A stretch of 64,000 nt of DNA, from IMG/VR virus record IMGVR_UViG_3300017792_000017, positions 80,969 to 144,968 of that record. One strand, written 5' to 3'. The position numbers and the translations under genes were made by a program. Source of the stretch: a virus. Shown in pieces: positions 7,216-29,889 of this stretch (its first letter is position 1; each line of letters opens with the position of its first letter). The notes below the pieces were generated by a model, which searched no databases, had not been told where the DNA came from, and saw only the letters and a program-made list of their open reading frames with translations.

Positions 7216-7533
7216 TCAAGTATTGTATTTCTGTCCGTACAGTTTGTCAATTTTTTCCATGATCTTACGATCTTGGTGCTGGAAGTACTTGTGTACTCCA
7301 AACATGCCTGTACCTACAGCTGCTGCTCCACCAACTCCGACCTTTACTCTTGTCTGGAATGTACGGCCAGCTTCTACTTGTGCTTTGCGTTTAGCACGAA
7401 GAGCTGTAAGTCCCGTATCCTCAGCCTCGCGCATTACACGAGCCTTAGTAGCCCATTCCTTTGCGCTCTTCCCCGACACTTGATCGATCATTTTGAGGGT
7501 CTTGGATAGGTATCTGTTAAAACTACCTGCCAT
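7216..7533 (-). CDS. basic protein with Gly-rich hydrophobic segment; tag-like N-terminus (NRYLSK)
   Basis: RBS AAGGA; TAAAATA at 7561-7567. Confidence 0.6.
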   Translation of the reverse strand: MAGSFNRYLSKTLKMIDQVSGKSAKEWATKARVMREAEDTGLTALRAKRKAQVEAGRTFQTRVKVGVGGAAAVGTGMFGVHKYFQHQDRKIMEKIDKLYGQKYNT

Positions 7534-9201: not shown

Positions 9202-10095
9202 TTAGAAGTTTAGAACAACTGCACCATTTACGTTACCGATACCAGCACCTACAGCTTCGTAAGTATGGAACTCGATAATGTCTGCTTCGGTCTTCAGGAA
9301 GACTGTCGGAGCTTGAAGCTCATAGAACTGACCAAGGTAGTTCTGAGGAGCAAAAACGATTGCTTGGTTCGTCGGGAGGATGTTAGCCTTGTTCGTGGTG
9401 ATGATCTTGTAACCGAAGAAGTTATCAAGAGTCGCTTCGCCTTGGAACAGTGCTGATGCTGCCGGTGAGCCTACGTCTGTTGCTGCAAAAGTCAGCAGAT
9501 CAGCGTACATTGATTGTGTCATAAGGATACAACCAACAGGTAGCTTGTTCAGAAGCATGAACTTGATACCAGCCATCAGGTTAGCCTTTGTAAAGCCACC
9601 AGCGATGGTGTGAACGTTGCTGTTTGCTGTAGCAATAGCGTTGATGTTTTGATAGAAGTTTACGTCTTCTTGTTCTTGAATATCCTTAACGCTGTTTTCT
9701 TGAAGGATAGTACGAATGTCGGTACGGTATGTAGCGAGTTCGAACTTGCTCTTACGGAAGTCAGCTGATTGGATCTTCTGGAATGTAACTGGGTAACGTT
9801 GTGTCTTCCAGTAACGGATTTCCGGACGGCCAAGGAACGGAGCAGTAGCAGCTACTGAATCAGGTTCCTTTTCAACGATAACCGTTGGTTCTTCAGTCAG
9901 TTGGCGATCAAGCTCTGAAGCTGTGATTTGAACTGGCGTAAGAATCTTACGGGTAAAGCCGTCTTCACGAAGCTTCTGACGTACGAAAGCTGACATTGCA
10001 GCTGAAGCTTCTTTGGTGTGACCTTGGTCAATCTTGTCTAGGAAAGATTGATTCAGGAATTGTACGTTTACTGTTTCTGTGTTATATGCGCTCAT
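9202..10095 (-). CDS. major capsid protein (HK97-type fold, putative)
   Basis: Follows protease, scaffold and decoration genes; strongly biased codon use; capsid-like C-terminus (YEAVGAGIGNVNGAVVLNF); KEA site at residues 28-30. Confidence 0.75.
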   Translation of the reverse strand: MSAYNTETVNVQFLNQSFLDKIDQGHTKEASAAMSAFVRQKLREDGFTRKILTPVQITASELDRQLTEEPTVIVEKEPDSVAATAPFLGRPEIRYWKTQRYPVTFQKIQSADFRKSKFELATYRTDIRTILQENSVKDIQEQEDVNFYQNINAIATANSNVHTIAGGFTKANLMAGIKFMLLNKLPVGCILMTQSMYADLLTFAATDVGSPAASALFQGEATLDNFFGYKIITTNKANILPTNQAIVFAPQNYLGQFYELQAPTVFLKTEADIIEFHTYEAVGAGIGNVNGAVVLNF

Positions 10096-11272: not shown

Positions 11273-11693
11273 TTGTCTTTTTGCTATGGAGCGGGCTAAA
11301 ACCTGCATTAGCCATGCGCTTATTGTGATCGATATGCCCAGAAATTTTACCAGCTAAAGTAACACCTAGAGAACCGGCGATGAGACCTGCGTTAAATTTT
11401 CCAAGTTTTTTTCCAGCAAGTAAAGCTTCTCTAGAAAAACCTTCTGGCACTCCAGTTGAGAGCATTTTTCTATGAGCAGCCTCTACTAGAGAAGTGCCAG
11501 CTTTAGCACCTGCGAATCCTGCAGCTGCCATCGAGCCTAAAGCTATGCCGGGATGTACGCCTTTGGCTTCATGGTATTTCTTAAAGTCAGATTTATCCAA
11601 ATTCACGCTTTTGATATTGAAAAACTTCTTATCATCTGAGTGAGGCTTAACCTGATAACTTTCAGCAACTTTCTCTAAGTACTTATTGGACAT
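11265..11693 (-). CDS. NKYLEKVA-tagged internal head protein with Gly/Ala hydrophobic segments
   Basis: MSNKYLEKVAES start. Confidence 0.6.
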   Translation of the reverse strand: MSNKYLEKVAESYQVKPHSDDKKFFNIKSVNLDKSDFKKYHEAKGVHPGIALGSMAAAGFAGAKAGTSLVEAAHRKMLSTGVPEGFSREALLAGKKLGKFNAGLIAGSLGVTLAGKISGHIDHNKRMANAGFSPLHSKKTND

Positions 11694-12108
11694 GTTTGTT
11701 AATCTGTTTATTTAGTTTAACACCAGCATAGTCTGCTGCTAAACCAGCTGCTCCACTTAACGCCATAATTTTAGCGTTGTGAAGTTTGGCACCTTGCCCG
11801 AATACCTTAGGCATAGAGTTCATCAGCTTATGAGCACCAAAGCCTGTAGCTGTGCCCAAACCAGCGATTACGCCAGTGTTGACCAGCTCTTGTTTATGTG
11901 TTAAATCCTGCGCAGCTTTATACAACGCTCTGGTAAAGAGAGTCTTAGCTCCCCGTATCAGTTTTGAACCAGGTGCCGTAATAGGCGCTGGTTCTTTTAC
12001 TTTCCCTAGGCTTACATCTTTCTTGACAATCATACCAGCCGATTTGATGCGACCTTGAGTGTCCATGTCAAAATTAAGACTAGCGATTTTTTCAAGATAT
12101 TTGTTCAT
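11683..12108 (-). CDS. NKYLEKIA-tagged internal head protein
   Basis: MNKYLEKIAS start; Gly-rich segments. Confidence 0.6.
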   Translation of the reverse strand: MNKYLEKIASLNFDMDTQGRIKSAGMIVKKDVSLGKVKEPAPITAPGSKLIRGAKTLFTRALYKAAQDLTHKQELVNTGVIAGLGTATGFGAHKLMNSMPKVFGQGAKLHNAKIMALSGAAGLAADYAGVKLNKQINKHVQ

Positions 12109-12177: not shown

Positions 12178-12735
12178 TTAGTCTGCTTTAGATTTATGTT
12201 TCTTGTCTGCTAGAGCACCTTTGATTGCCGAGTAGGCTTTTCCGCCAAGGTATCCACCGCCGACAGATCCTGCAACAAGTCCTGGAAGTCCAGCTGCATG
12301 AACACCTGCTACAGCACCTGCAGTACCGGTTACGAATCCTGACAAGGTACCACCTACTTTATCACCTTTTTTGGATCCAGCATAACCACTTAGTGCACTA
12401 AGAAGAGCTTCTTTTTCTAACTCAGAAGCCTTCTTTTCTACTAGATCAACTGCATTTTCAAAATCCAGACCTGAGTCTACCAGAAGACTTACTGCAGCTT
12501 GTTTTTCTTGGTTTTTGTTCTTTTGTACTGCGGCGCCAACACCTAGACCTAAGACTCCTGCGCCAGTGGCCGCTGCTGCGACCCTAGCCTTATTCAGTGT
12601 GCGTGGAGCACCCATAACATTCTTGGGACCCCCACCTGAGCCTGGAATACGTGTGACTTTTTGAGCTAACGAAGTGCCTGGAACTTTACCCGCTAGTTGC
12701 AGGACACCCGCTTCTTTCGTTAGCCCAGCTTTTTT
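12178..12735 (-). CDS. -1 frameshift extension of the scaffold protein (glycine-zipper tail)
   Basis: Frame is open from the slippery site A AAA AAG (12735-12729) through the 12615 ORF; carries a third scaffold repeat. Confidence 0.65.
   Translation of the reverse strand, partial: KKAGLTKEAGVLQLAGKVPGTSLAQKVTRIPGSGGGPKNVMGAPRTLNKARVAAAATGAGVLGLGVGAAVQKNKNQEKQAAVSLLVDSGLDFENAVDLVEKKASELEKEALLSALSGYAGSKKGDKVGGTLSGFVTGTAGAVAGVHAAGLPGLVAGSVGGGYLGGKAYSAIKGALADKKHKSKAD
12662..12735 (-). promoter_or_regulatory. programmed -1 ribosomal frameshift signal (slippery heptamer + stem-loop)
   Basis: A AAA AAG followed by the stem TGGGCTAACGAA/TTCGTTAGCTCA with further internal pairing. Confidence 0.7.
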
Positions 12736-13583
12736 ACCAAGTTTACTGCGGTGTCAAAATCGAAGCCAGCTTCGATGAAGTGTGACAGTGCAGCTTGCTT
12801 AACTTGTGAAGCTTCTTCACGTTCGATTTCTTCAGCAGCTTCCTTGACCATGTTTACTGCATCGTCAAATTCAAAGCCTTGTTCTACGAGTGATGAAACT
12901 GCAGCAGCCTTTTCTTGACCAGCCGTTACCCAACCACCAGTTTGAACTTGGTTAGGAGCTTGTGCACCGATTTGTGCGCCTTCATCCTTAGCAACGCCAG
13001 GAGCAGGATTTTGATCAACTGGAGCAGCGCCACGAGCCATTGCGTCAGCAACGATTGCGTCGAAGATTTGGTTGATTGTACCACCATTACCCTTGCCGTC
13101 TGTGCCGGGTTGGTTCTGGATGATAGCATCTTGTTCAGCTACTTGAGCTGCAAGATCTTGTTGTGTCTTGTTCGGTACAGCATTACCAATACCGTTAACG
13201 GTATTTTGGTCACCTACTGAAGCCAGCTTTTCAAGAAGAGCTTCGGCTAGTGCCTTGCCTGCGTCAGCAGCTTGTTTGTTCATAGTATCCTCTGGTTTAA
13301 CTTGATCAAGTTTAATGGATGCAACTTTTTGCATTACTTCTTTTGCTAAGTCAGCGCCTTTAGCCGCAGCTTCTTTGACACGTTCATCAGCATCGTTCTT
13401 CTCTTTGGCGTCCTTGACTTCTTCCTTAGCTTCCTTTACATCTTTGTCAGCTTTGTCGATAGCCTTTTCTGCCTTATCTTCATCTTTCTTTTCTTCTTTC
13501 TCTGTATCTTCACTAGCTACTTTATGGAGGCCAGCTTCTTTTTGCAGATCATTAAGAAGACCGTCTAGAGTGAAACTCATCAT
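12720..13583 (-). CDS. prohead scaffolding protein
   Basis: Directly downstream of the protease; acidic and helical; 9 or more KxA sites; C-terminal helical repeats. Confidence 0.7.
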   Translation of the reverse strand: MMSFTLDGLLNDLQKEAGLHKVASEDTEKEEKKDEDKAEKAIDKADKDVKEAKEEVKDAKEKNDADERVKEAAAKGADLAKEVMQKVASIKLDQVKPEDTMNKQAADAGKALAEALLEKLASVGDQNTVNGIGNAVPNKTQQDLAAQVAEQDAIIQNQPGTDGKGNGGTINQIFDAIVADAMARGAAPVDQNPAPGVAKDEGAQIGAQAPNQVQTGGWVTAGQEKAAAVSSLVEQGFEFDDAVNMVKEAAEEIEREEASQVKQAALSHFIEAGFDFDTAVNLVKKLG

Positions 13584-13641: not shown

Positions 13642-15156
13642 TCAATTCTTTTTCTTCTGAACCAACTTAACCATCGCTGTTTTGGCGAGTTTGTAAGTCA
13701 GCTTATAGTCAGAAGCAGATTTAACTAAAACTATTTTAACACCATCTGAAGCCTTGTTCAATTCTTGCTCTTTCATTTTCCGCTCTATTGCTTGGGTAAT
13801 GTACCACTTAGCAGCTAGAGCAGCTCCGCCGATAGCAGCAATGGCAGTAAGCATCTTCATCAAACTTGACTTATTCCCTTCTTCTGACTTGAGATTCTGT
13901 TCACGGAACTTTTCGTAAATCGTAGGTTCGATGTGAGGACCGTTGCCGACAAAGCCAACATTAGTACCCTGTACATAACCGTAAGTCGAAGCCTGTTTGT
14001 TCAGCGATACACGTTCCTCAACATACTGTGGAAGATACGAGGCATCCTGCATATGAGGAAGCATAGCATGAACGATACCGATGTTGGGTTCTGTAATTTC
14101 ACCGAAATCACGGTCGAATTCGGGAATAGCAGTAAGACCAACCTTATCAAAATATGCAGCAGCCATTGGGCCAATGCCGCGCCCTTCTTCACCCATCAAT
14201 TTTCTAGCAATCAGTTCAGCGAGAAAACCAATCGAAGGGCTAATGCCAAGATGAGCAAAGGTACTAAAAGTCTCATTAAGCTTATAATTTCGAAGAACAT
14301 CGATAACCGATCCTTGCGGATCACTAACTCGTGATACAAGATTATCAAGATTAGAATCGATAGATACAACATCGCCATCAATCTCCTTCGTTAATTCTGA
14401 AAGCTTTTTAAGAGTAGCACTCTTCTGTAACGGAAGGTCATTTAGACCAGCCATTAGCGCCTCATCCACTGAACCAATCACTTCGCTTTCAGATGCTACT
14501 TTCTGTAGAACTGCGCTAGTTACGTCTGCTGGACGAAATACAATAGAGATGTCGAAGAATCGCAATGGAGCCAAGTTAAGCGCCATTACCTTACGACCAT
14601 CAGGGAAAACCTTACCCAACTGTTCGCTTAGATGCTCACAATACTCTTCACGGGTACGAGCTTTGTTACCACAAATTGAACAAACATCGAAAGGTGTACG
14701 GCAAGCCATTGAAGTCTTTGGCCAGTCACCGCTTTCGATACGATCAACGATGTCTGGAGCCTTGTCGTTCCAAAGCTCAGCGATAAGCTCAACGCGGTGC
14801 ATTCTGTCGTTGTAGACAGAGTACACAACTTGACCAATAGCGATTTCGGGATTTTTGTTTACGTGGTTTCTGAAAATATGGGCAGGAGCAGTCTCAAAGG
14901 TATTGTGGTAATCAATGAGGTTACTTTCTGGGAAGTAGTCAGCATTACGGTTTGCACCATAAAACTCTCCAGCACCCATAGCTAGAATGTGAAGATACGT
15001 CTTGCCCTGAATGGGCGTTAGTTTAGAAGCGAATTCTTGAATGCGAGAATCCGTAGCCTGCTTAATAAGACTGCCTGTAAGATCTTTGGGATCGAGAATA
15101 GTTACCTGTGGTTCTTCACGGTAAAAAGAAGACGTATCGATTAGTTTAGTTAGCAT
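13642..15156 (-). CDS. prohead maturation protease with Zn ribbon
   Basis: FRNHVN...AIGQV, TSMACRTPFDVCSICGN, CEHL, FFDISIVFRPAD: HK97/herpes-type protease layout. Confidence 0.7.
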   Translation of the reverse strand: MLTKLIDTSSFYREEPQVTILDPKDLTGSLIKQATDSRIQEFASKLTPIQGKTYLHILAMGAGEFYGANRNADYFPESNLIDYHNTFETAPAHIFRNHVNKNPEIAIGQVVYSVYNDRMHRVELIAELWNDKAPDIVDRIESGDWPKTSMACRTPFDVCSICGNKARTREEYCEHLSEQLGKVFPDGRKVMALNLAPLRFFDISIVFRPADVTSAVLQKVASESEVIGSVDEALMAGLNDLPLQKSATLKKLSELTKEIDGDVVSIDSNLDNLVSRVSDPQGSVIDVLRNYKLNETFSTFAHLGISPSIGFLAELIARKLMGEEGRGIGPMAAAYFDKVGLTAIPEFDRDFGEITEPNIGIVHAMLPHMQDASYLPQYVEERVSLNKQASTYGYVQGTNVGFVGNGPHIEPTIYEKFREQNLKSEEGNKSSLMKMLTAIAAIGGAALAAKWYITQAIERKMKEQELNKASDGVKIVLVKSASDYKLTYKLAKTAMVKLVQKKKN

Positions 15157-15179: not shown

Positions 15180-15989
15180 TTATTTTGACTCTTTCTTCGG
15201 ATGCCACTTGTCCATAATTTTCTTGGCAAGATATGCACCGGCTACTGGGATTGCAGCCCCAACAGCATAAGAGCCCATTTGCGAAGGTAGAAGCTTGCGT
15301 ACATACTTATTAGCAGCGGCAGCTCCCTTGTGGGCTTTAATTCCTTTGTATGCATGGTAATTAGCAGCAGCTTCTTCTCTTAAAGTTAGTGCGCCAGGAA
15401 TAGCTGCAACGGCTGGAGCGTAATCACGAGTCTTGTCATTTGAAAGAGCTGCAATGGTAGCAACACTACTTACTCCGGGCATTTTGGCAATTGGAGCCAA
15501 CGCTTTAAGCTTTCCGTAACTTTGGAAGTCTTTGGCGTGGCCAAGTTCATGCATTAGAACGTCAGCGTTCTTAACAGTCTTTCCACCATTTCTTAATCCT
15601 ACTACAAAGTCTTTTTGAGCACCTACCCCTCTGGTACGTAGAAACGCAGGTCCAGGAGCGTCATTACTAGCTAAGTGTTTATAAATCTTTCCCAAAGGAT
15701 TCTTTGAAAAAGTCATTTTATCTACATTGTGCTTTCTAGTATTGAAAGTAGTGGTTTTATGTAAACCATTATCTTTCATAAACTTTCTAAGGGTGTGGTG
15801 ATCTGCTCCAGAATCGCTGTGAGAAGCTGATATTGCAGATACAACTTTTCTAGATACTGCATGCTGTAGGGCACCACCGGCTACTCCCGCAGAAAAGCCT
15901 CCAAGCAAGGAGGCTCCTACTGCTGAAACAACTTTAGACTTATCTTTGTTCTTGTCTGATGCTATTTTTTCTAAATACTTATTTTGCAT
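15180..15989 (-). CDS. NKYLEKIA-tagged zinc metallopeptidase (zincin)
   Basis: MQNKYLEKIAS; HELGH with downstream EEAAAN; hydrophobic segments. Confidence 0.65.
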   Translation of the reverse strand: MQNKYLEKIASDKNKDKSKVVSAVGASLLGGFSAGVAGGALQHAVSRKVVSAISASHSDSGADHHTLRKFMKDNGLHKTTTFNTRKHNVDKMTFSKNPLGKIYKHLASNDAPGPAFLRTRGVGAQKDFVVGLRNGGKTVKNADVLMHELGHAKDFQSYGKLKALAPIAKMPGVSSVATIAALSNDKTRDYAPAVAAIPGALTLREEAAANYHAYKGIKAHKGAAAANKYVRKLLPSQMGSYAVGAAIPVAGAYLAKKIMDKWHPKKESK

Positions 15990-16293
15990 TTTGGTCAGGG
16001 ACTAATTTCAGATTTACGGTTACCTTAGGCTTTTTCCTAAGAGCCTCTGAAATACCCTTAAGCTCGTTCAGCGATTGCGCCTCAAGTACGCCACGTTTTT
16101 TATTGTCAAGCTTATTCTCTAGGCTATTACTATAATTAGCAGCGCCTAGAGAGAGACCGGCAGCAGACATACCCAGACCAACTTTAGAAGTTGTTGAGCT
16201 TCGTTTCCAGCCCTTCGCAAAACTTTTGCCGAAACCAGTTATGGATTCAGCTACAGCTTTTGCGGATGCGATTTTCTCTAGGTACTTATTCAT
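15979..16293 (-). CDS. NKYLEKIA-tagged basic internal protein
   Basis: MNKYLEKIAS start; VGLGMSAAGLSLGAA segment. Confidence 0.6.
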   Translation of the reverse strand: MNKYLEKIASAKAVAESITGFGKSFAKGWKRSSTTSKVGLGMSAAGLSLGAANYSNSLENKLDNKKRGVLEAQSLNELKGISEALRKKPKVTVNLKLVPDQNAK

Positions 16294-16872: not shown

Positions 16873-17955
16873 TTAATCACGCTGGAGAGCGCTCCAGACA
16901 TCGTTACTTCTACCGGTTGTCTTGTCTACACCTGGATCATAGAAAGCTGCATCAGCTATAGGACCAGCAGCATTAAACAAAGACTTACCAGCGCTTACTG
17001 TAGTCTTACCGATAGCCTTTGCTGTATTTTTTATGGTGGGTTTACCAAGTGCTGAAAGATTGTCTTTAACAGACTTATTAACAGCTCCGCCTACTGCCTT
17101 TGCTACTCTCATCGGAGAAGATGCTACAGTACCGATTATCTTACCTGCTGCGTATGCCGGGTTAGCTTTTTGAGCAGTAACCTTAGCAGAAGCTGCAGCT
17201 CCGTTCATGGCCCTAGTGAACATGTTTGATTTTACACCTTGCGCAGCATCAGCAGCGCGTTTCTGAAGACCAGAACGCTCACGTTGTTCACGAACAAGTT
17301 CACGAGCTTGTTTGTACAGATCTGCAAAAGCATTTACTTCTTTAAGCTGAGCTGATTTAAATAGACCTAGCTCACCAATATCACGATACGCTTTAACTTC
17401 GCCAGAAACGAGGACAGAAAGCTCTGAGAACGTTTGTTCTTCTGTGACACATGCCAGCTTATCCATCCATGCATCATCCTTGCTAAGAGCCTTTGCGGCC
17501 TTCACAAGCGTATCTGCTAAAACGATAGCATCAATCTCTAGGCGATCAAGAGCTTCTTTGTTAGCTGCTGCTGACTTTATAAGATATGTGAGCTTCTCTG
17601 CTTCTACTAATTCTAGTTCGTGGCTTGAAGCTTCTTTCTCAAGATTTGCTTGAAGCTCTTCTGCTTTTACTTGTGCTACTTTTTCTTGAAAACCTTCAGG
17701 AATCGTAGCTGCTGACATTACTTCAGCAAACTTAGCTAGGGGGAATTCTACTGTGCGGTCTTCTGCATGTTGAAGAACCTTCAAATAAGCAATGTTATTC
17801 GTTGATTCAACAGCACGCTTCACTTGTTCTACATTCAGTTCGTAAGCGGCTGCTTGTTTAGCAAGGCCCTTGCTCAGAGGAACTTTATTGTTCAGGAAAT
17901 CTTCAACTGCTTGAACTGAGATATCCCGAATAAGTTCAGGGGTTACGTTTGCCAT
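16873..17955 (-). CDS. putative inner-head/core protein rich in KxA sites
   Basis: About 11 KxA motifs; TAAAATA at 17978-17984; likely start MANVT. Confidence 0.55.
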   Translation of the reverse strand: MANVTPELIRDISVQAVEDFLNNKVPLSKGLAKQAAAYELNVEQVKRAVESTNNIAYLKVLQHAEDRTVEFPLAKFAEVMSAATIPEGFQEKVAQVKAEELQANLEKEASSHELELVEAEKLTYLIKSAAANKEALDRLEIDAIVLADTLVKAAKALSKDDAWMDKLACVTEEQTFSELSVLVSGEVKAYRDIGELGLFKSAQLKEVNAFADLYKQARELVREQRERSGLQKRAADAAQGVKSNMFTRAMNGAAASAKVTAQKANPAYAAGKIIGTVASSPMRVAKAVGGAVNKSVKDNLSALGKPTIKNTAKAIGKTTVSAGKSLFNAAGPIADAAFYDPGVDKTTGRSNDVWSALQRD

Positions 17956-18100
17956 TCTTGGCTCCATTCTGTGACTTTATTTTAACCTTGGCTGACAAGG
18001 ATATAAAAGGCTTCTTGGGATGCTTAATAGCCTTTTGACCTTTACGCATCGTAAGCTGACCCTTCTTTTTAGACGCTATTTTTTCTAGGTATATGTTCAT
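17936..18100 (-). CDS. 54-aa highly basic tagged protein (MNIYLEKIASKKKG...)
   Basis: Translated by hand; missed by the ORF track; carries the tag. Confidence 0.65.
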   Translation of the reverse strand: MNIYLEKIASKKKGQLTMRKGQKAIKHPKKPFISLSAKVKIKSQNGAKNGKRNP

Positions 18101-26532: not shown

Positions 26533-26576
26533 TAAAATAGCTTAGACATGTTATAATGTGTCTGGGCTTTTTTTAG
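26533..26576 (+). promoter_or_regulatory. late promoter TAAAATA overlapping a terminator whose loop holds TGTTATAAT
   Basis: TAAAATA 26533-26539; hairpin GCTTAGACAT/GTGTCTGGGC then T7AG. Confidence 0.55.
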
Positions 26577-26600
26577 CCTTTCAAAGGGCGTCTTACAAGA

Positions 26601-28532
26601 ATGTTACAACCAAACGACGAATTTCTATTTACCCGGCAACGACACGAAGCTGATGTCATGGGCCTTCATTATGACCTCAGGCTTGTCCACAAGGACAAGG
26701 CATATTCTTTTGCAACGCTTAAAGATATGCCAAAGCCAGGCGAAATCATTGGCGTCTTTGAACAGCCTGTACATGATCGTGCTTACGCATTGAGCAAGAA
26801 GGTAGTAATCCCCAAAGGCCAATACGGTGCTGGAACTACGTATTTAGATTGGGTTCGTAAAGCTGTTGTAGCTCCACATAGTACAGAGACTATGCTTGTA
26901 ATCTTCACCAAAGATGGTGAGAAGTTTTTGCTGAAGAAATCACCGACTAAAGAAAACGAAAAATCTTGGATTCTCAGAAACATTACTGGTATGGGTAAGA
27001 GTACGAGCCCATATTTAACTCGCAAATCTTCTATTGAGAAACGAGCTTGGGCGCTTGACGACTATGCTGGTGGTAACGTATACCTAGAAAAAATTGCCAA
27101 GAAGAAGGAACAGAAAGATGATCTACGTCCCCACCAAACTGATGCCCTTGATCATTTGGATAAAGAGCATGGCGTCGTCCTTCATCACAGCCTTGGCAGC
27201 GGCAAGACTAAGACGTTCCTTAAGGCAGTACAACGCTATCAAGAAAAGTACCCGAAGAAGCGGGCGTTGGTCATTGCTCCTGCCAGTCTCGTCACGAACG
27301 TTGATAAGGAACTCAAGAAACACAATATCAAACTGGACAGAGATCGACTGGATGTAATGTCCTATGAGAAAGCTGTTATTGATGCTCACAAATTACGTAA
27401 AAATGATTACTCTATCGCAGTTGCAGACGAAGCTCACAGGCTCCGTAATACGAACACTAAACGTACTAGAGAACTCCGAGATATTATCAGCGGTGCTGAT
27501 CGTCGTTTACTTGCTACTGCTACTGGCAATTACAATAAACTCTCTGATATATCCGCTCTTGTAAACATTGCGGCCAATGATAACGTTCTTCCTGAAGAAT
27601 CAAAGAAAATGGATGATCGTTACACGAAGGAAGAAATTATTAAGCCGGGCTTCAAAGATAGACTTCTAGGAGCCAAGCCTGAAGCAGTGCGTAGACTTGA
27701 TCGTAGAAAAGAACTTAAAGAGATTCTCAATCAGTACGTAAGCTTCTACGATAGTAAGGATGATCCAGAAGCAGCAAAGCATTTCCCCAAGAAGACAGAG
27801 AAAATCGTTGAGGTTGAAATGTCCAAGGATCAGCAGAAGTATTACAAGTTTGCTGAAGGCAAGATTCCGTTCTTGCTGAGAATGAAGATTCGTCACAACC
27901 TTCCACTGGATAAGAAAGAAAAGGCTAACCTCAATGCTTTCTCAACAGGTGTAAGACAGGTTTCTAATGGCTACAGGCATTTGACAAGCGACGGTAAGGC
28001 TGAGTACTCACCTAAGATCCTCAAGGCTGTAGAGAGCCTGCAGAAGGGTATGTCAGAGGATAAAAACTTCAAAGCCCTTGTGTACTCAAACTATCTTGAT
28101 GCTGGACTTAAAGACTACTCCAGAAAGCTTCAAGAGATGAAGATTGACCATGCTGTTTATGATGGTTCTCTGTCAAGAGCAGAGAAGGATCAGCTAGTCA
28201 AGGATTACAACTCTGGTAGGAAGAAGATTCTACTGATTTCATCTTCAGGTTCAGAAGGTCTTGACTCAAAGGGTACAAAGCGTGTACAGGTTCTAGAGCC
28301 TCACTTCAACCCCAGTAAAATTAACCAAGTAGTAGGTCGTGCAGTTAGATTTGGTTCGCATGCACACTTGCCAGAAGAAGAACGTAAAGTACTAGTTGAG
28401 CATTTCCACAGCGTACATCCTAAGCCGCTATGGGGCAAGACGCCATACTCTATTGATAAGTACTTATCAGAGAATTCAGATACGAAAGAAGAACTGTTTG
28501 ACGAAGTTAAGAGCTTGATGAAAAATGACTAA
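26601..28532 (+). CDS. LigD-type 3'-phosphoesterase domain fused to an NPH-I/VETF-like SNF2 helicase
   Basis: HYDLRL, H..Y, IPKGQYGAG (PE domain); HSLGSGKT, DEAH, ATAT, SGSEGLD, QVVGRAVRFGSH (SF2); linker NVYLEKIA. Confidence 0.85.
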   Translation: MLQPNDEFLFTRQRHEADVMGLHYDLRLVHKDKAYSFATLKDMPKPGEIIGVFEQPVHDRAYALSKKVVIPKGQYGAGTTYLDWVRKAVVAPHSTETMLVIFTKDGEKFLLKKSPTKENEKSWILRNITGMGKSTSPYLTRKSSIEKRAWALDDYAGGNVYLEKIAKKKEQKDDLRPHQTDALDHLDKEHGVVLHHSLGSGKTKTFLKAVQRYQEKYPKKRALVIAPASLVTNVDKELKKHNIKLDRDRLDVMSYEKAVIDAHKLRKNDYSIAVADEAHRLRNTNTKRTRELRDIISGADRRLLATATGNYNKLSDISALVNIAANDNVLPEESKKMDDRYTKEEIIKPGFKDRLLGAKPEAVRRLDRRKELKEILNQYVSFYDSKDDPEAAKHFPKKTEKIVEVEMSKDQQKYYKFAEGKIPFLLRMKIRHNLPLDKKEKANLNAFSTGVRQVSNGYRHLTSDGKAEYSPKILKAVESLQKGMSEDKNFKALVYSNYLDAGLKDYSRKLQEMKIDHAVYDGSLSRAEKDQLVKDYNSGRKKILLISSSGSEGLDSKGTKRVQVLEPHFNPSKINQVVGRAVRFGSHAHLPEEERKVLVEHFHSVHPKPLWGKTPYSIDKYLSENSDTKEELFDEVKSLMKND

Positions 28533-29889
28533 CAAATATCTAGAAAAGATAGCGACAGACCTTAAAGAACCTGCTAGTCCAGAGAGTCTTGGCTTTGACT
28601 TGTCTAAAGGCGATGAAAAAGAACTGTACAAATGGATGACGGCTGTCACTCTTTTTTCTAGACCCATTCAACGCTCAGTAGCAGGTATGGCTGCAAAACA
28701 CATGGCTTCACAGGGTTTTCACTCACCTGAAGCCGTGGAATCTGCTGGATGGGAAACTCTTCAAGATAATCTAGTACAAGGTCACTACGGTCGTTTTGAC
28801 GAATCTACAGCTACGACGATGCTTGCTCAAGCAAGGCATTTGAAAGAGAAATATGGTACAATTAGTAATCTGATCGACAAGCGGACTCCTGAAGAAATCA
28901 GGGCAGAGATTCAATCATTTCGCGGGATCGGTCCTCTTGGGAGCCAGCTATTCGTGGAAGGTATTAATCCGTATCTCGAACATATTCAAAAACAAGCTTC
29001 AATCGATACCTACGTTCGTCACAAATACGTAGAGGGAGATTGGACTCAGCTTGAACATCCAGTAGCTTCAAAGAAGTGGGATGGTGCTCACTTCGTACTT
29101 ACCGTACAACCTGATGGTTCTTTGACTTATCATTCCCGTAGACCTAGCGTAAAAGGTGGATTTCCTGAGCGTTCAGCACAGCTTCCTCATCTAGCTAAAC
29201 CGATGCCAGAATTTGCTGGAAATCAGTTTGCAGTAGAGCTTGTACATACAGGTCTTGCAAAGTCTGAAACCGAGTCTCACCCTACTGTTTCCGGTATTCT
29301 GAATTCTCTTCCTCCACGTTCAATCGCAACTCAGGCAGAGAAAGGTCCAGTTCGTGCAGTACTTATCGATGTTAAAAATCCAGACTTGCCAACGTATAAA
29401 GACAAAGTCGAATACATTCAAAAGTTCGAACAAGCTTATGGTGAGCCAGATCTTCTGTTCTCTCCTCATCTAGAGCACGGCGTTGAAAACATCAACAAGT
29501 ATCTAGACAGAATTAAAGAACAAAAGGGAGAAGGCTTAATCGTTGCAGACTACGCTAAGCCAGAGACAGAATCAGTACGGTACAAAGTCAAGAACTACGT
29601 AACGTACAACTTGAAGGTAATTGGCCAGCAACAAGAAATCGACATCAAAGGCAACCCTAAAGACAGTATGGGTGCGTTGATTCTTGCAGATGCTTCAGGA
29701 AGAATGGTTGGTAAGGTTGGAACGGGCTTTGATAGAGATACTCGTATCAATACTTGGAAGACTCCCGAACTGTTCAATGAGAAGCTTATTCAAGTTAAGG
29801 CATATCCCCCTAGCGTTCCAGGCGGTCAAATCAGATTCCCAGTTTACAACGGCTTCGCTGACGGCGATATTGACCGTGTAAATCTCTAA
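28525..29889 (+). CDS. HhH-GPD-like domain fused to ATP-dependent DNA ligase; tagged N-terminus
   Basis: MTNKYLEKIA; FRGIGP HhH motif; KWDG, EGLIV, YKVK, VGTGF, RFPVY. Confidence 0.85.
   Translation: MTNKYLEKIATDLKEPASPESLGFDLSKGDEKELYKWMTAVTLFSRPIQRSVAGMAAKHMASQGFHSPEAVESAGWETLQDNLVQGHYGRFDESTATTMLAQARHLKEKYGTISNLIDKRTPEEIRAEIQSFRGIGPLGSQLFVEGINPYLEHIQKQASIDTYVRHKYVEGDWTQLEHPVASKKWDGAHFVLTVQPDGSLTYHSRRPSVKGGFPERSAQLPHLAKPMPEFAGNQFAVELVHTGLAKSETESHPTVSGILNSLPPRSIATQAEKGPVRAVLIDVKNPDLPTYKDKVEYIQKFEQAYGEPDLLFSPHLEHGVENINKYLDRIKEQKGEGLIVADYAKPETESVRYKVKNYVTYNLKVIGQQQEIDIKGNPKDSMGALILADASGRMVGKVGTGFDRDTRINTWKTPELFNEKLIQVKAYPPSVPGGQIRFPVYNGFADGDIDRVNL

Follow-up and report, generated by a model that had tools for sequence, protein, structure and literature searches.

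The final 64 kb of a 144,968-bp single-contig phage genome (IMG/VR virus record IMGVR_UViG_3300017792_000017, positions 80,969 to 144,968; these 64,000 nucleotides are called the window below, and coordinates refer to it unless the genome is named) contain two plus-strand open reading frames (ORFs), ORF1 and ORF2, in which enzymes acting on DNA are joined by a short peptide that also begins several proteins encoded in the head module. This raises the question whether such enzymes are carried into the virion as tagged cargo, and whether the prohead protease separates them at the peptide. The two ORFs overlap by 8 nt. They are organised as follows, with the peptide N-K-Y-L-E-K-I-A called the tag and the pattern hydrophobic-x-K-x-A called the site motif.

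26601-28532, plus strand: ORF1, 643 amino acids, with a phosphoesterase (PE) domain, a junction and an SNF2 ATPase
26601-26981, plus strand: LigD-type 3'-phosphoesterase domain, ORF1 residues 1-127 (Pfam LigD_N, PDB 3p43)
27033-27047, plus strand: I-E-K-R-A, first site-like motif of the ORF1 junction, residues 145-149, followed by W
27075-27098, plus strand: internal tag N-V-Y-L-E-K-I-A, ORF1 residues 159-166, followed by K, 8 residues before the helicase core
27120-28355, plus strand: SNF2/SF2 ATPase core, ORF1 residues 174-585 (SNF2-rel_dom, Helicase_C, ResIII)
28525-29889, plus strand: ORF2, 454 amino acids, with a tag, a helical domain with a helix-hairpin-helix (HhH) motif, a junction and a DNA ligase
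28531-28554, plus strand: N-terminal tag N-K-Y-L-E-K-I-A, ORF2 residues 3-10, followed by T
28555-28965, plus strand: all-alpha domain with the HhH motif FRGIGPLG, fold unassigned, ORF2 residues 11-147
28966-28998, plus strand: degenerate junction tag N-P-Y-L-E-H-I-Q-K-Q-A, ORF2 residues 148-158, followed by S159
28999-29886, plus strand: ATP-dependent DNA ligase with nucleotidyltransferase and OB domains, ORF2 residues 159-454

An earlier note on this DNA had placed the tag at the N-termini of head-region proteins, at the start of ORF2 and at both domain junctions. It is indeed found in all these places, the copy at the ORF2 junction being degenerate. N-termini of the type (M)-N-K-Y-L-E-K-I-A-S are present in ORF2 and in six minus-strand ORFs (starts at 18100, 16293, 15989, 12108, 11693 and 6242), and a search of the whole 145-kb genome yielded no further copies beyond these seven N-termini and the two junctions. 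From residue frequencies, the chance expectation for the 8-mer is approximately 0.003. When the tag copies are compared, 100 out of 166 codon pairs for the same amino acid differ in codon, including switches between TCN and AGY serine codons, so that selection acts on the peptide and not on the DNA. A literature search on the tag string gave unrelated matches only. The six tagged ORFs of the head region are:

17936-18100, minus strand: very basic protein of 54 amino acids (16 K+R versus 1 D+E)
15979-16293, minus strand: protein of 104 amino acids
15180-15989, minus strand: protein of 269 amino acids containing HELGH, just upstream of the protease gene
11683-12108, minus strand: protein of 141 amino acids
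11265-11693, minus strand: protein of 142 amino acids
5979-6242, minus strand: protein of 87 amino acids, with TAAAATA 5 nt before its ATG

No isolated phage was matched when the region was searched with Megablast. The nearest isolates are Salmonella phage Arash and Vibrio phage D69 (protease 46-47% identical), and the phage is a member of the Arash-like clade with a multisubunit virion RNA polymerase, not a T4-type phage. The tagged head-region proteins are small and basic with glycine-zipper-like stretches, and they lack counterparts in Arash, whereas the surrounding genes (capsid protein, protease, scaffold and four others) have them; the tagged ORFs are thus insertions between head genes that are conserved with Arash. 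In a relative with a 94% identical protease, the ORF that takes the place of the 269-amino-acid protein shares the tag alone. Nine related metagenomic loci each harbor 5-8 tagged ORFs at most 10 kb from the protease gene. A constant leader on unrelated, swappable cargo whose genes lie in the head module supports the view that the tag behaves like a capsid targeting sequence (CTS) of the T4 type.

Some further tag-bearing proteins may be mentioned here. The H-E-L-G-H sequence of the 269-amino-acid protein is a zincin-type metallopeptidase motif, and it is missing from the unrelated tagged protein found at the same place in close relatives. Three head-module proteins of related loci (L011:14062-15216, L009:15111-16040 and L012:14005-15231) have 2-3 internal tags and glycine-zipper segments; they may be small cargo polyproteins of a design like that of ORF1 and ORF2. 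In the window, a 105-amino-acid ORF at 7216-7533 (minus strand) begins with a weaker tag variant, MAGSFNRYLSKT, and is preceded by TAAAATA at a distance of 27 nt.

The second half of the tag, L-E-K-I-A followed by S, is an exact fit to the pattern [LMIV]-x-K-x-A-[SGAT], the form in which the site motif was tested on the 200 ORFs of the genome. It occurs 47 times in the proteome as compared to 14.3 ± 3.8 times in shuffled sequences. Its density is 15-fold higher in the head module (30 copies in 4,642 residues, 6.5 per 1000) than elsewhere (17 in 39,666 residues, 0.43 per 1000), and the motif Ala is followed by Ser at 14 head-module sites but at a single site elsewhere. The T4-type (L/I-x-E) and phiKZ-type (S/A/G-x-E) motifs showed no enrichment in the head module. 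Three head proteins carry the site motif as follows.

13642-15156, minus strand: prohead protease, 504 amino acids (phrog_18299, head maturation protease), five site motifs
12720-13583, minus strand: acidic scaffold-like protein, 287 amino acids, six site motifs
9202-10095, minus strand: major capsid protein, H-T-K-E-A-S at residues 25-30

Two of the five motifs of the protease directly follow its catalytic domain. In the protease alignment the K-x-A columns do not vary, in the scaffold alignment they are among the few invariant ones, and the position of the capsid-protein site is kept down to 35% identity. Head proteins of Arash and D69 also possess L/M-x-K-x-A-S/A/G near their N-termini, though without the N-K-Y tag. 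The motif counts in Arash gp220-226 are 5, 2, 3, 6, 1, 4 and 1; in Arash and D69, respectively, the scaffolds have 6 and 9 motifs and the proteases 3 and 3, with 1 in the capsid protein at residues 25-30 and 0 in tail genes. In Bacillus phage G, which has a distantly related protease, the motif is present in the protease and at the portal N-terminus and absent from the capsid protein, from which we draw no conclusion. Maturation cleavage is known for T4, phiKZ and SPN3US, and multiple propeptide cuts as well as self-cutting of the protease occur in phiKZ/SPN3US-type heads (PMC5694885). Because its spread over scaffold, protease and capsid-protein N-terminal arm is the pattern expected of maturation cleavage, we read the site motif as that of the prohead protease; judged from these sequence patterns, hydrophobic-x-K-x-A is probably the cleavage site of this enzyme.

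The protease itself has an invariant Cys/His cluster (C151, C158, C161, C172 and H174) beside the candidate catalytic residue S148, which looks like a zinc-ribbon insert. Such an insert is not known from proteases of the T4 gp21 type. Arash gp223 matches both the scaffold ORF and the ORF at 12178-12615. A protein of 295 amino acids encoded at genome positions 70548-71435 (minus strand), about 10 kb before the window, contains seven hydrophobic-x-K-x-A motifs, with F-V-K-Q-A-S near the N-terminus, and is probably a further head-core or scaffold-like protein outside the head module.

Within ORF1 and ORF2 the site motif is confined to the N-terminus of ORF2, the ORF2 junction (I-Q-K-Q-A) and the ORF1 junction, where it occurs twice. 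A structure model of ORF2 was built on eight homologs (pLDDT 69), and the junction is situated within a linker of low confidence (pLDDT <50 at residues 134-161). The predicted ligase product begins where stand-alone ligase homologs begin, and close relatives have the canonical K-N-K-Y-L-Q-K-A-A-S at this junction. The earlier note had asked whether the junction motifs persist in relatives, and they are conserved: the tag forms the N-terminus of 58 out of 60 stand-alone helicase homologs, with unchanged spacing to the core, and is kept down to about 50% identity, and 62 of 90 PE-containing proteins have the tag at a median of 7 residues after the PE core, most of the others having a bare site motif. 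An extra site between PE core and tag, as in the window, is found in 19 of these 62 proteins. In the related locus L026, the PE (155 amino acids) and the tagged helicase are encoded by separate genes with an 8-nt overlap. The junctions contain no in-frame ATG, GTG or TTG, and internal translation starts were therefore rejected.

Fusions of the ORF1 type (PE-SNF2) are found again in many independent contigs, at 45-83% identity, for which reason a sequencing frameshift was rejected as the source of the ORF1 fusion. Other combinations are PE+ligase (P0170, P0207 and others), SNF2-ligase (P0178) and the triple fusion PE-SNF2-ligase (P0041 and P0046), which has L-V-K-E-A at the helicase-ligase joint. 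In P0126, the ligase part is 99% identical and is preceded by a different tagged N-domain. This second tagged module of about 130 amino acids (W-P-E-Y-W signature and R-R-W-x-x-F-K-x-R-H) replaces the HhH domain before the ligase in the metagenomic relatives P0126 and P0131-P0136 and is placed before the helicase in a further one, P0047; in P0131 a GNAT acetyltransferase lies between the module and the ligase. The island of PE, helicase and ligase genes sits between RNA polymerase subunit genes in every tag-bearing relative examined. In the literature searched, a description of the PE/SNF2/ligase trio as a repair module was not found.

The enzymatic nature of the domains could be established for three of the four that the earlier note had listed. 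Profiles and folds support the LigD-type PE, the SNF2 ATPase and the ATP-dependent ligase, whereas the matches to an HhH-GPD glycosylase are weak. In domain profile searches, LigD_N scored above its cut-off and SNF2-rel_dom matched; HHH_5 and the Pfam ligase models scored below theirs, the ligase being supported by its fold.

For the PE domain, Pfam LigD_N (PF13298 / TIGR02777) matches ORF1 residues 13-81 with 32.6 bits against a cut-off of 31.1 when residues 1-160 are used as query; NCBIfam LigD_PE_dom scored under its cut-off. The domain aligns with the archaeal PE structure 3p43 (E 1e-5), and H15, H23-x-D25-x-R27 and H58...Y62 align with conserved residues of that structure. We take these to be the catalytic residues as known from the Pseudomonas LigD PE, with two His and the Asp for the metal, plus Arg, His and Tyr. 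The ATPase part scores 72 bits with PF00176 and 58 bits with PF00271, and the Walker A motif GSGKT, DEAH and GRAVR (the GRxxR arginine finger) can be read in its sequence. Its best solved relatives are Sulfolobus SNF2 (1z63), Rad54 and, over part of the sequence, vaccinia NPH-I.

The C-terminal part of ORF2 is a minimal ATP-dependent DNA ligase. Foldseek found Chlorella virus ligase (2q2t, E 9e-13), Lig E (6gdr) and T4 ligase (6dt1), and a profile search matched 9fzx and 1fvi. Ligase motifs I, III, IV and V are invariant in the homolog alignment (K184-W-D-G, E238-L-V, E336-G-L-I-V and K354-V-K356). For residues 11-147, the claim of an HhH-GPD glycosylase, and with it that of base repair, could not be established, since the resemblance to this family is weak and inconsistent. 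HHH_5 scores 18 bits, which is under the cut-off. With a model of pLDDT 64, the best Foldseek hit in the PDB is NTHL1 at E 0.4 (NTHL1/EndoIII at E 0.4-1.5, TM about 0.3); the wide VIA search gave Z values of at most 4.5 with unrelated helical folds on top, and the Atlas search TM values of at most 0.37. Language-model neighbours of the domain include Ogg-HhH and HhH-GPD clusters. In HhH-GPD enzymes a catalytic Asp is expected about 18-20 residues after the hairpin; relatives have P-H-L-D approximately 17 residues after G-I-G, and the window protein has P-Y-L-E, inside the disordered linker.

If the pair encodes head cargo, its expression should follow that of the structural genes. Two elements precede ORF1:

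26533-26539, plus strand: TAAAATA, a promoter motif of the structural-gene type, upstream of ORF1
26539-26575, plus strand: 13-bp hairpin followed by a run of seven T, terminator-like, beginning at the last base of TAAAATA

The promoter motif that the earlier note had described as late is present before the pair; the label is taken from the genes that TAAAATA precedes. Of its 25 copies in the genome, 23 are on the minus strand and two on the plus strand. With coding sequence making up 92% of the genome, 20 copies (19 minus, 1 plus) fall between genes, and 20 have an ORF start, mostly that of a structural gene, no more than 86 nt downstream. The copy at 26533 is the sole intergenic one on the plus strand, and in two related loci (L026 and L027) both the motif and the following hairpin are conserved before the PE gene, with a compensatory change in the stem. 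A second element, TGGTATAA, is restricted to the plus strand, with 33 copies, of which 24 are intergenic; 14 copies lie in the window (24019, 25159, 29912 and 11 more), against 1.5 expected there. It resembles an extended -10 element. The two motifs would thus form two promoter-like classes split by strand, and the hairpin may end read-through from the upstream genes driven by TGGTATAA, whereas a transcript begun just downstream of TAAAATA would be without the full 5' arm of the hairpin. The distance from TAAAATA to the ATG is exactly 5 nt in four genes, namely those of the protease (15162-15156) and the tagged 87-amino-acid protein (6248-6242) and two at genome positions 57102 and 51308; this spacing suggests leaderless or near-leaderless late messages.

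Data on virions are available for Arash. Its gp217 is 42.6% identical to the helicase part of ORF1, and the gene lies between the RNA polymerase beta' gene and the head genes, directly after beta'. In the Arash virion proteome, gp217 was found with 38 unique peptides and 1,148 spectra, as compared to 1,210 spectra for beta' and 1,333 for the capsid protein (PMC10585845).

On these grounds we lean towards the reading that ORF1 and ORF2 encode tagged head cargo that is packaged and processed; the tag with its distribution, the enrichment of the site motif, the identities of the domains, their fusions and the promoter motif are observed in the sequences, and tag binding, cleavage, packaging, injection and the biological role are what we infer from them. 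The tag would be a bipartite head-cargo signal, in which N-K-Y-L addresses the protein to the assembling prohead by binding one of the core components, and L-x-K-x-A is the cutting motif of the prohead protease of this clade, with the cut after Ala. ORF1 and ORF2 would be expressed alongside the structural proteins from the TAAAATA-type promoter, and their tags would carry them into the prohead together with the small basic glycine-zipper cargo proteins, trimming taking place there. ORF2 would most likely be cut after A10 and A158, with products of 16.5 kDa (the DNA-binding HhH domain) and 33 kDa (the ligase). Less certain is cleavage of ORF1, which may occur after A149, A166 or both and would yield a 3'-phosphoesterase of 17-19 kDa and an SNF2 translocase of 55 kDa. 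The PE, SNF2 and ligase proteins could then form one functional module for 3'-end healing, DNA translocation or remodelling and nick sealing, and would reach the host cell along with the phage DNA and the virion RNA polymerase. Roles in genome circularisation or in repair of breaks made by restriction enzymes or CRISPR are speculation. The complete scenario, in which this large clade, seemingly uncultured to date, loads the three enzymes by its private tag, the protease cleaves after Ala (between A and S, as in herpesvirus assemblin) and the injected enzymes mend or seal the genome before phage gene expression, is only a tentative proposal.

Several observations weigh against the packaging-and-processing reading. 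The site motif was derived post hoc from these same proteins, a concern that the replication in Arash and D69 lessens and does not remove. Comparison of the protease sequence and profile with PDB, Pfam and NCBIfam revealed no relative, and without a solved relative its specificity cannot be borrowed from a known enzyme. In the ORF1 junction the site Ala is followed by W or K, both uncommon at head-module sites, so that cleavage there is less certain than in ORF2. Of the stand-alone ligase homologs, 94 out of 95 are untagged; thus, the ligase does not generally need a virion location, which would at best be a derived trait of this sub-lineage. Arash gp217 is untagged as well, so the tag is not needed for packaging in Arash. 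The Arash virion list comprises 116 proteins including ribonucleotide reductases, so that contamination is possible and some carry-over likely. Finally, a strong hairpin with a T-run stands between TAAAATA and ORF1.

Among the alternatives, one is compatible with packaging: the SNF2 ATPase might be a cofactor of the virion RNA polymerase, with RapA/NPH-I-like recycling or release activity, or a genome-pulling translocase. The constant position of the helicase gene inside the RNA polymerase cluster (directly after beta' in Arash), the spectral count level with that of beta' and the partial sequence match to vaccinia NPH-I all fit such a function. We nevertheless regard it as rather doubtful, as the recurrent fusions to a LigD-type phosphoesterase and a DNA ligase tie the SNF2 protein to the chemistry of DNA ends, and an RNA-polymerase-binding domain was not found.

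It is unlikely that the enzymes are packaged and act as intact two-domain proteins, with motif and tag serving as docking peptides like encapsulin cargo-loading peptides or scaffold repeats. The 6-9 motif repeats of the scaffolds could equally provide multivalent binding, the Arash scaffold gp223 is reported at 100% coverage in virions (PMC10585845), the PE-SNF2-ligase triple fusions indicate that the domains can work in one chain, and the atypical residues after Ala at the ORF1 junction point the same way. However, the single capsid-protein site at residues 25-30 and the post-catalytic sites of the protease match the maturation cleavage of T4, phiKZ and SPN3US (PMC5694885), paired sites surround the tag in many PE proteins, pointing to its excision, and modules are swapped exactly at the junction.

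That the enzymes stay outside the virion for replication and repair in the cell or for late DNA processing, the tag being a docking motif for some other hub or a recombination-friendly boundary, is improbable as well: the untagged ligases, the location of the island among the RNA polymerase genes and outside the head operon throughout the tag-bearing clade, and late expression, which would also suit a concatemer-maturing enzyme, agree with it, but the tag includes the head-specific motif and is shared by the small, basic glycine-zipper proteins whose genes are inserted among the head genes, its retention on helicases as distant as about 50% identity shows that it is no relic, and in Arash virions the helicase homolog matches RNA polymerase beta' in abundance.

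If the tagged-cargo reading is correct, a clade of phages unrelated to T4 uses its cargo-loading principle with another tag and another protease specificity, and DNA-repair enzymes join the proteins that phages deliver with their DNA. For a protease family without a solved relative, it also provides a cleavage rule that can be tested directly (K-x-A, then a small residue), and foreign proteins might be loaded into these capsids by means of the tag of 8-10 residues. The recurrent fusions of PE, SNF2 and ligase would define a three-enzyme repair module.

Bacterial LigD of non-homologous end joining combines phosphoesterase, polymerase and ligase domains. As in LigD, the PE of the window has the catalytic His/Asp/Arg/His/Tyr pattern and is coupled to an ATP-dependent ligase, the two being fused in some relatives. 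Unlike in the LigD system, a polymerase domain is absent from the window proteins and no Ku was seen, the ligase is a minimal one similar to the Chlorella virus enzyme and Lig E, SNF2 is a third partner, and tags are placed at the domain borders. Virions of poxviruses contain a multisubunit RNA polymerase together with the SNF2-like ATPase NPH-I, which has a role in transcription termination. A prepackaged polymerase and an SNF2-family ATPase are thus shared with poxviruses, which differ in being eukaryotic viruses without loading by tag and cleavage.

The giant phages phiKZ, 201phi2-1 and SPN3US resemble the present phage in having a virion RNA polymerase and many internal or ejection proteins. 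Their head proteins are processed by a prohead protease similar to that of T4; the propeptides are longer than 100 amino acids, the cutting motif is S/A/G-x-E, and no short shared leader has been described (PMC5694885).

Polyvalent proteins of phages and conjugative elements are multi-domain chains predicted to travel with the DNA and to be split into separate effectors, with SNF2-type ATPases as typical components (Iyer et al. 2017, PMC5512222). They have 2-15 effector domains, typically with a peptidase of their own, and are linked to head or DNA-transfer genes. ORF1 and ORF2 have two domains each and some relatives have three, an SNF2 ATPase is present, and there is no own peptidase. Polyvalent proteins pair SNF2 with adenine methylases and own metallopeptidase domains; in the window, processing is assigned to the prohead protease acting at a shared tag. 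Among the passages of PMC5512222 reached by a term search, LigD phosphoesterase and DNA ligase are absent from the polyvalent components, and the three mentions of 'ligase' refer to RNA ligases. Phage P1 DarB, a methylase fused to a helicase-like ATPase, is a proven head protein and thus a packaged example of the SNF2 type (PMC5512222).

The closest parallel is T4, in which cargo is loaded and trimmed via the CTS (PMC9026906; further background in PMC3012670). The CTS of IPI-III and Alt, which is processed by gp21, is likewise a leader of approximately 10 residues on unrelated, fast-swapping and mostly small basic proteins. The T4 IPII/IPIII leader MKTYQEFIAE, as read from the T4 record, and the window leader MNKYLEKIAS are identical at 5 of 10 positions. 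The T4 leader ends in the cutting motif of the protease, and scaffold and capsid-protein N-terminus share that motif; the window leader contains the head-enriched motif, the candidate cutting motif, which scaffold and capsid-protein N-terminus also carry. T4 cuts after Glu in L/I-x-E, whereas the cut in the window would be after Ala in hydrophobic-x-K-x-A. Furthermore, in the window the tag is placed inside chains and behind a domain (PE) as well, and the predicted cargo includes DNA-repair enzymes, unlike in T4. The system described here resembles the T4 and the polyvalent systems in its predicted working and differs from both in phage lineage, in the tag and its placement within chains and C-terminal to a domain, in the predicted cleavage chemistry, and in its cargo of LigD-type PE, SNF2 and DNA ligase.

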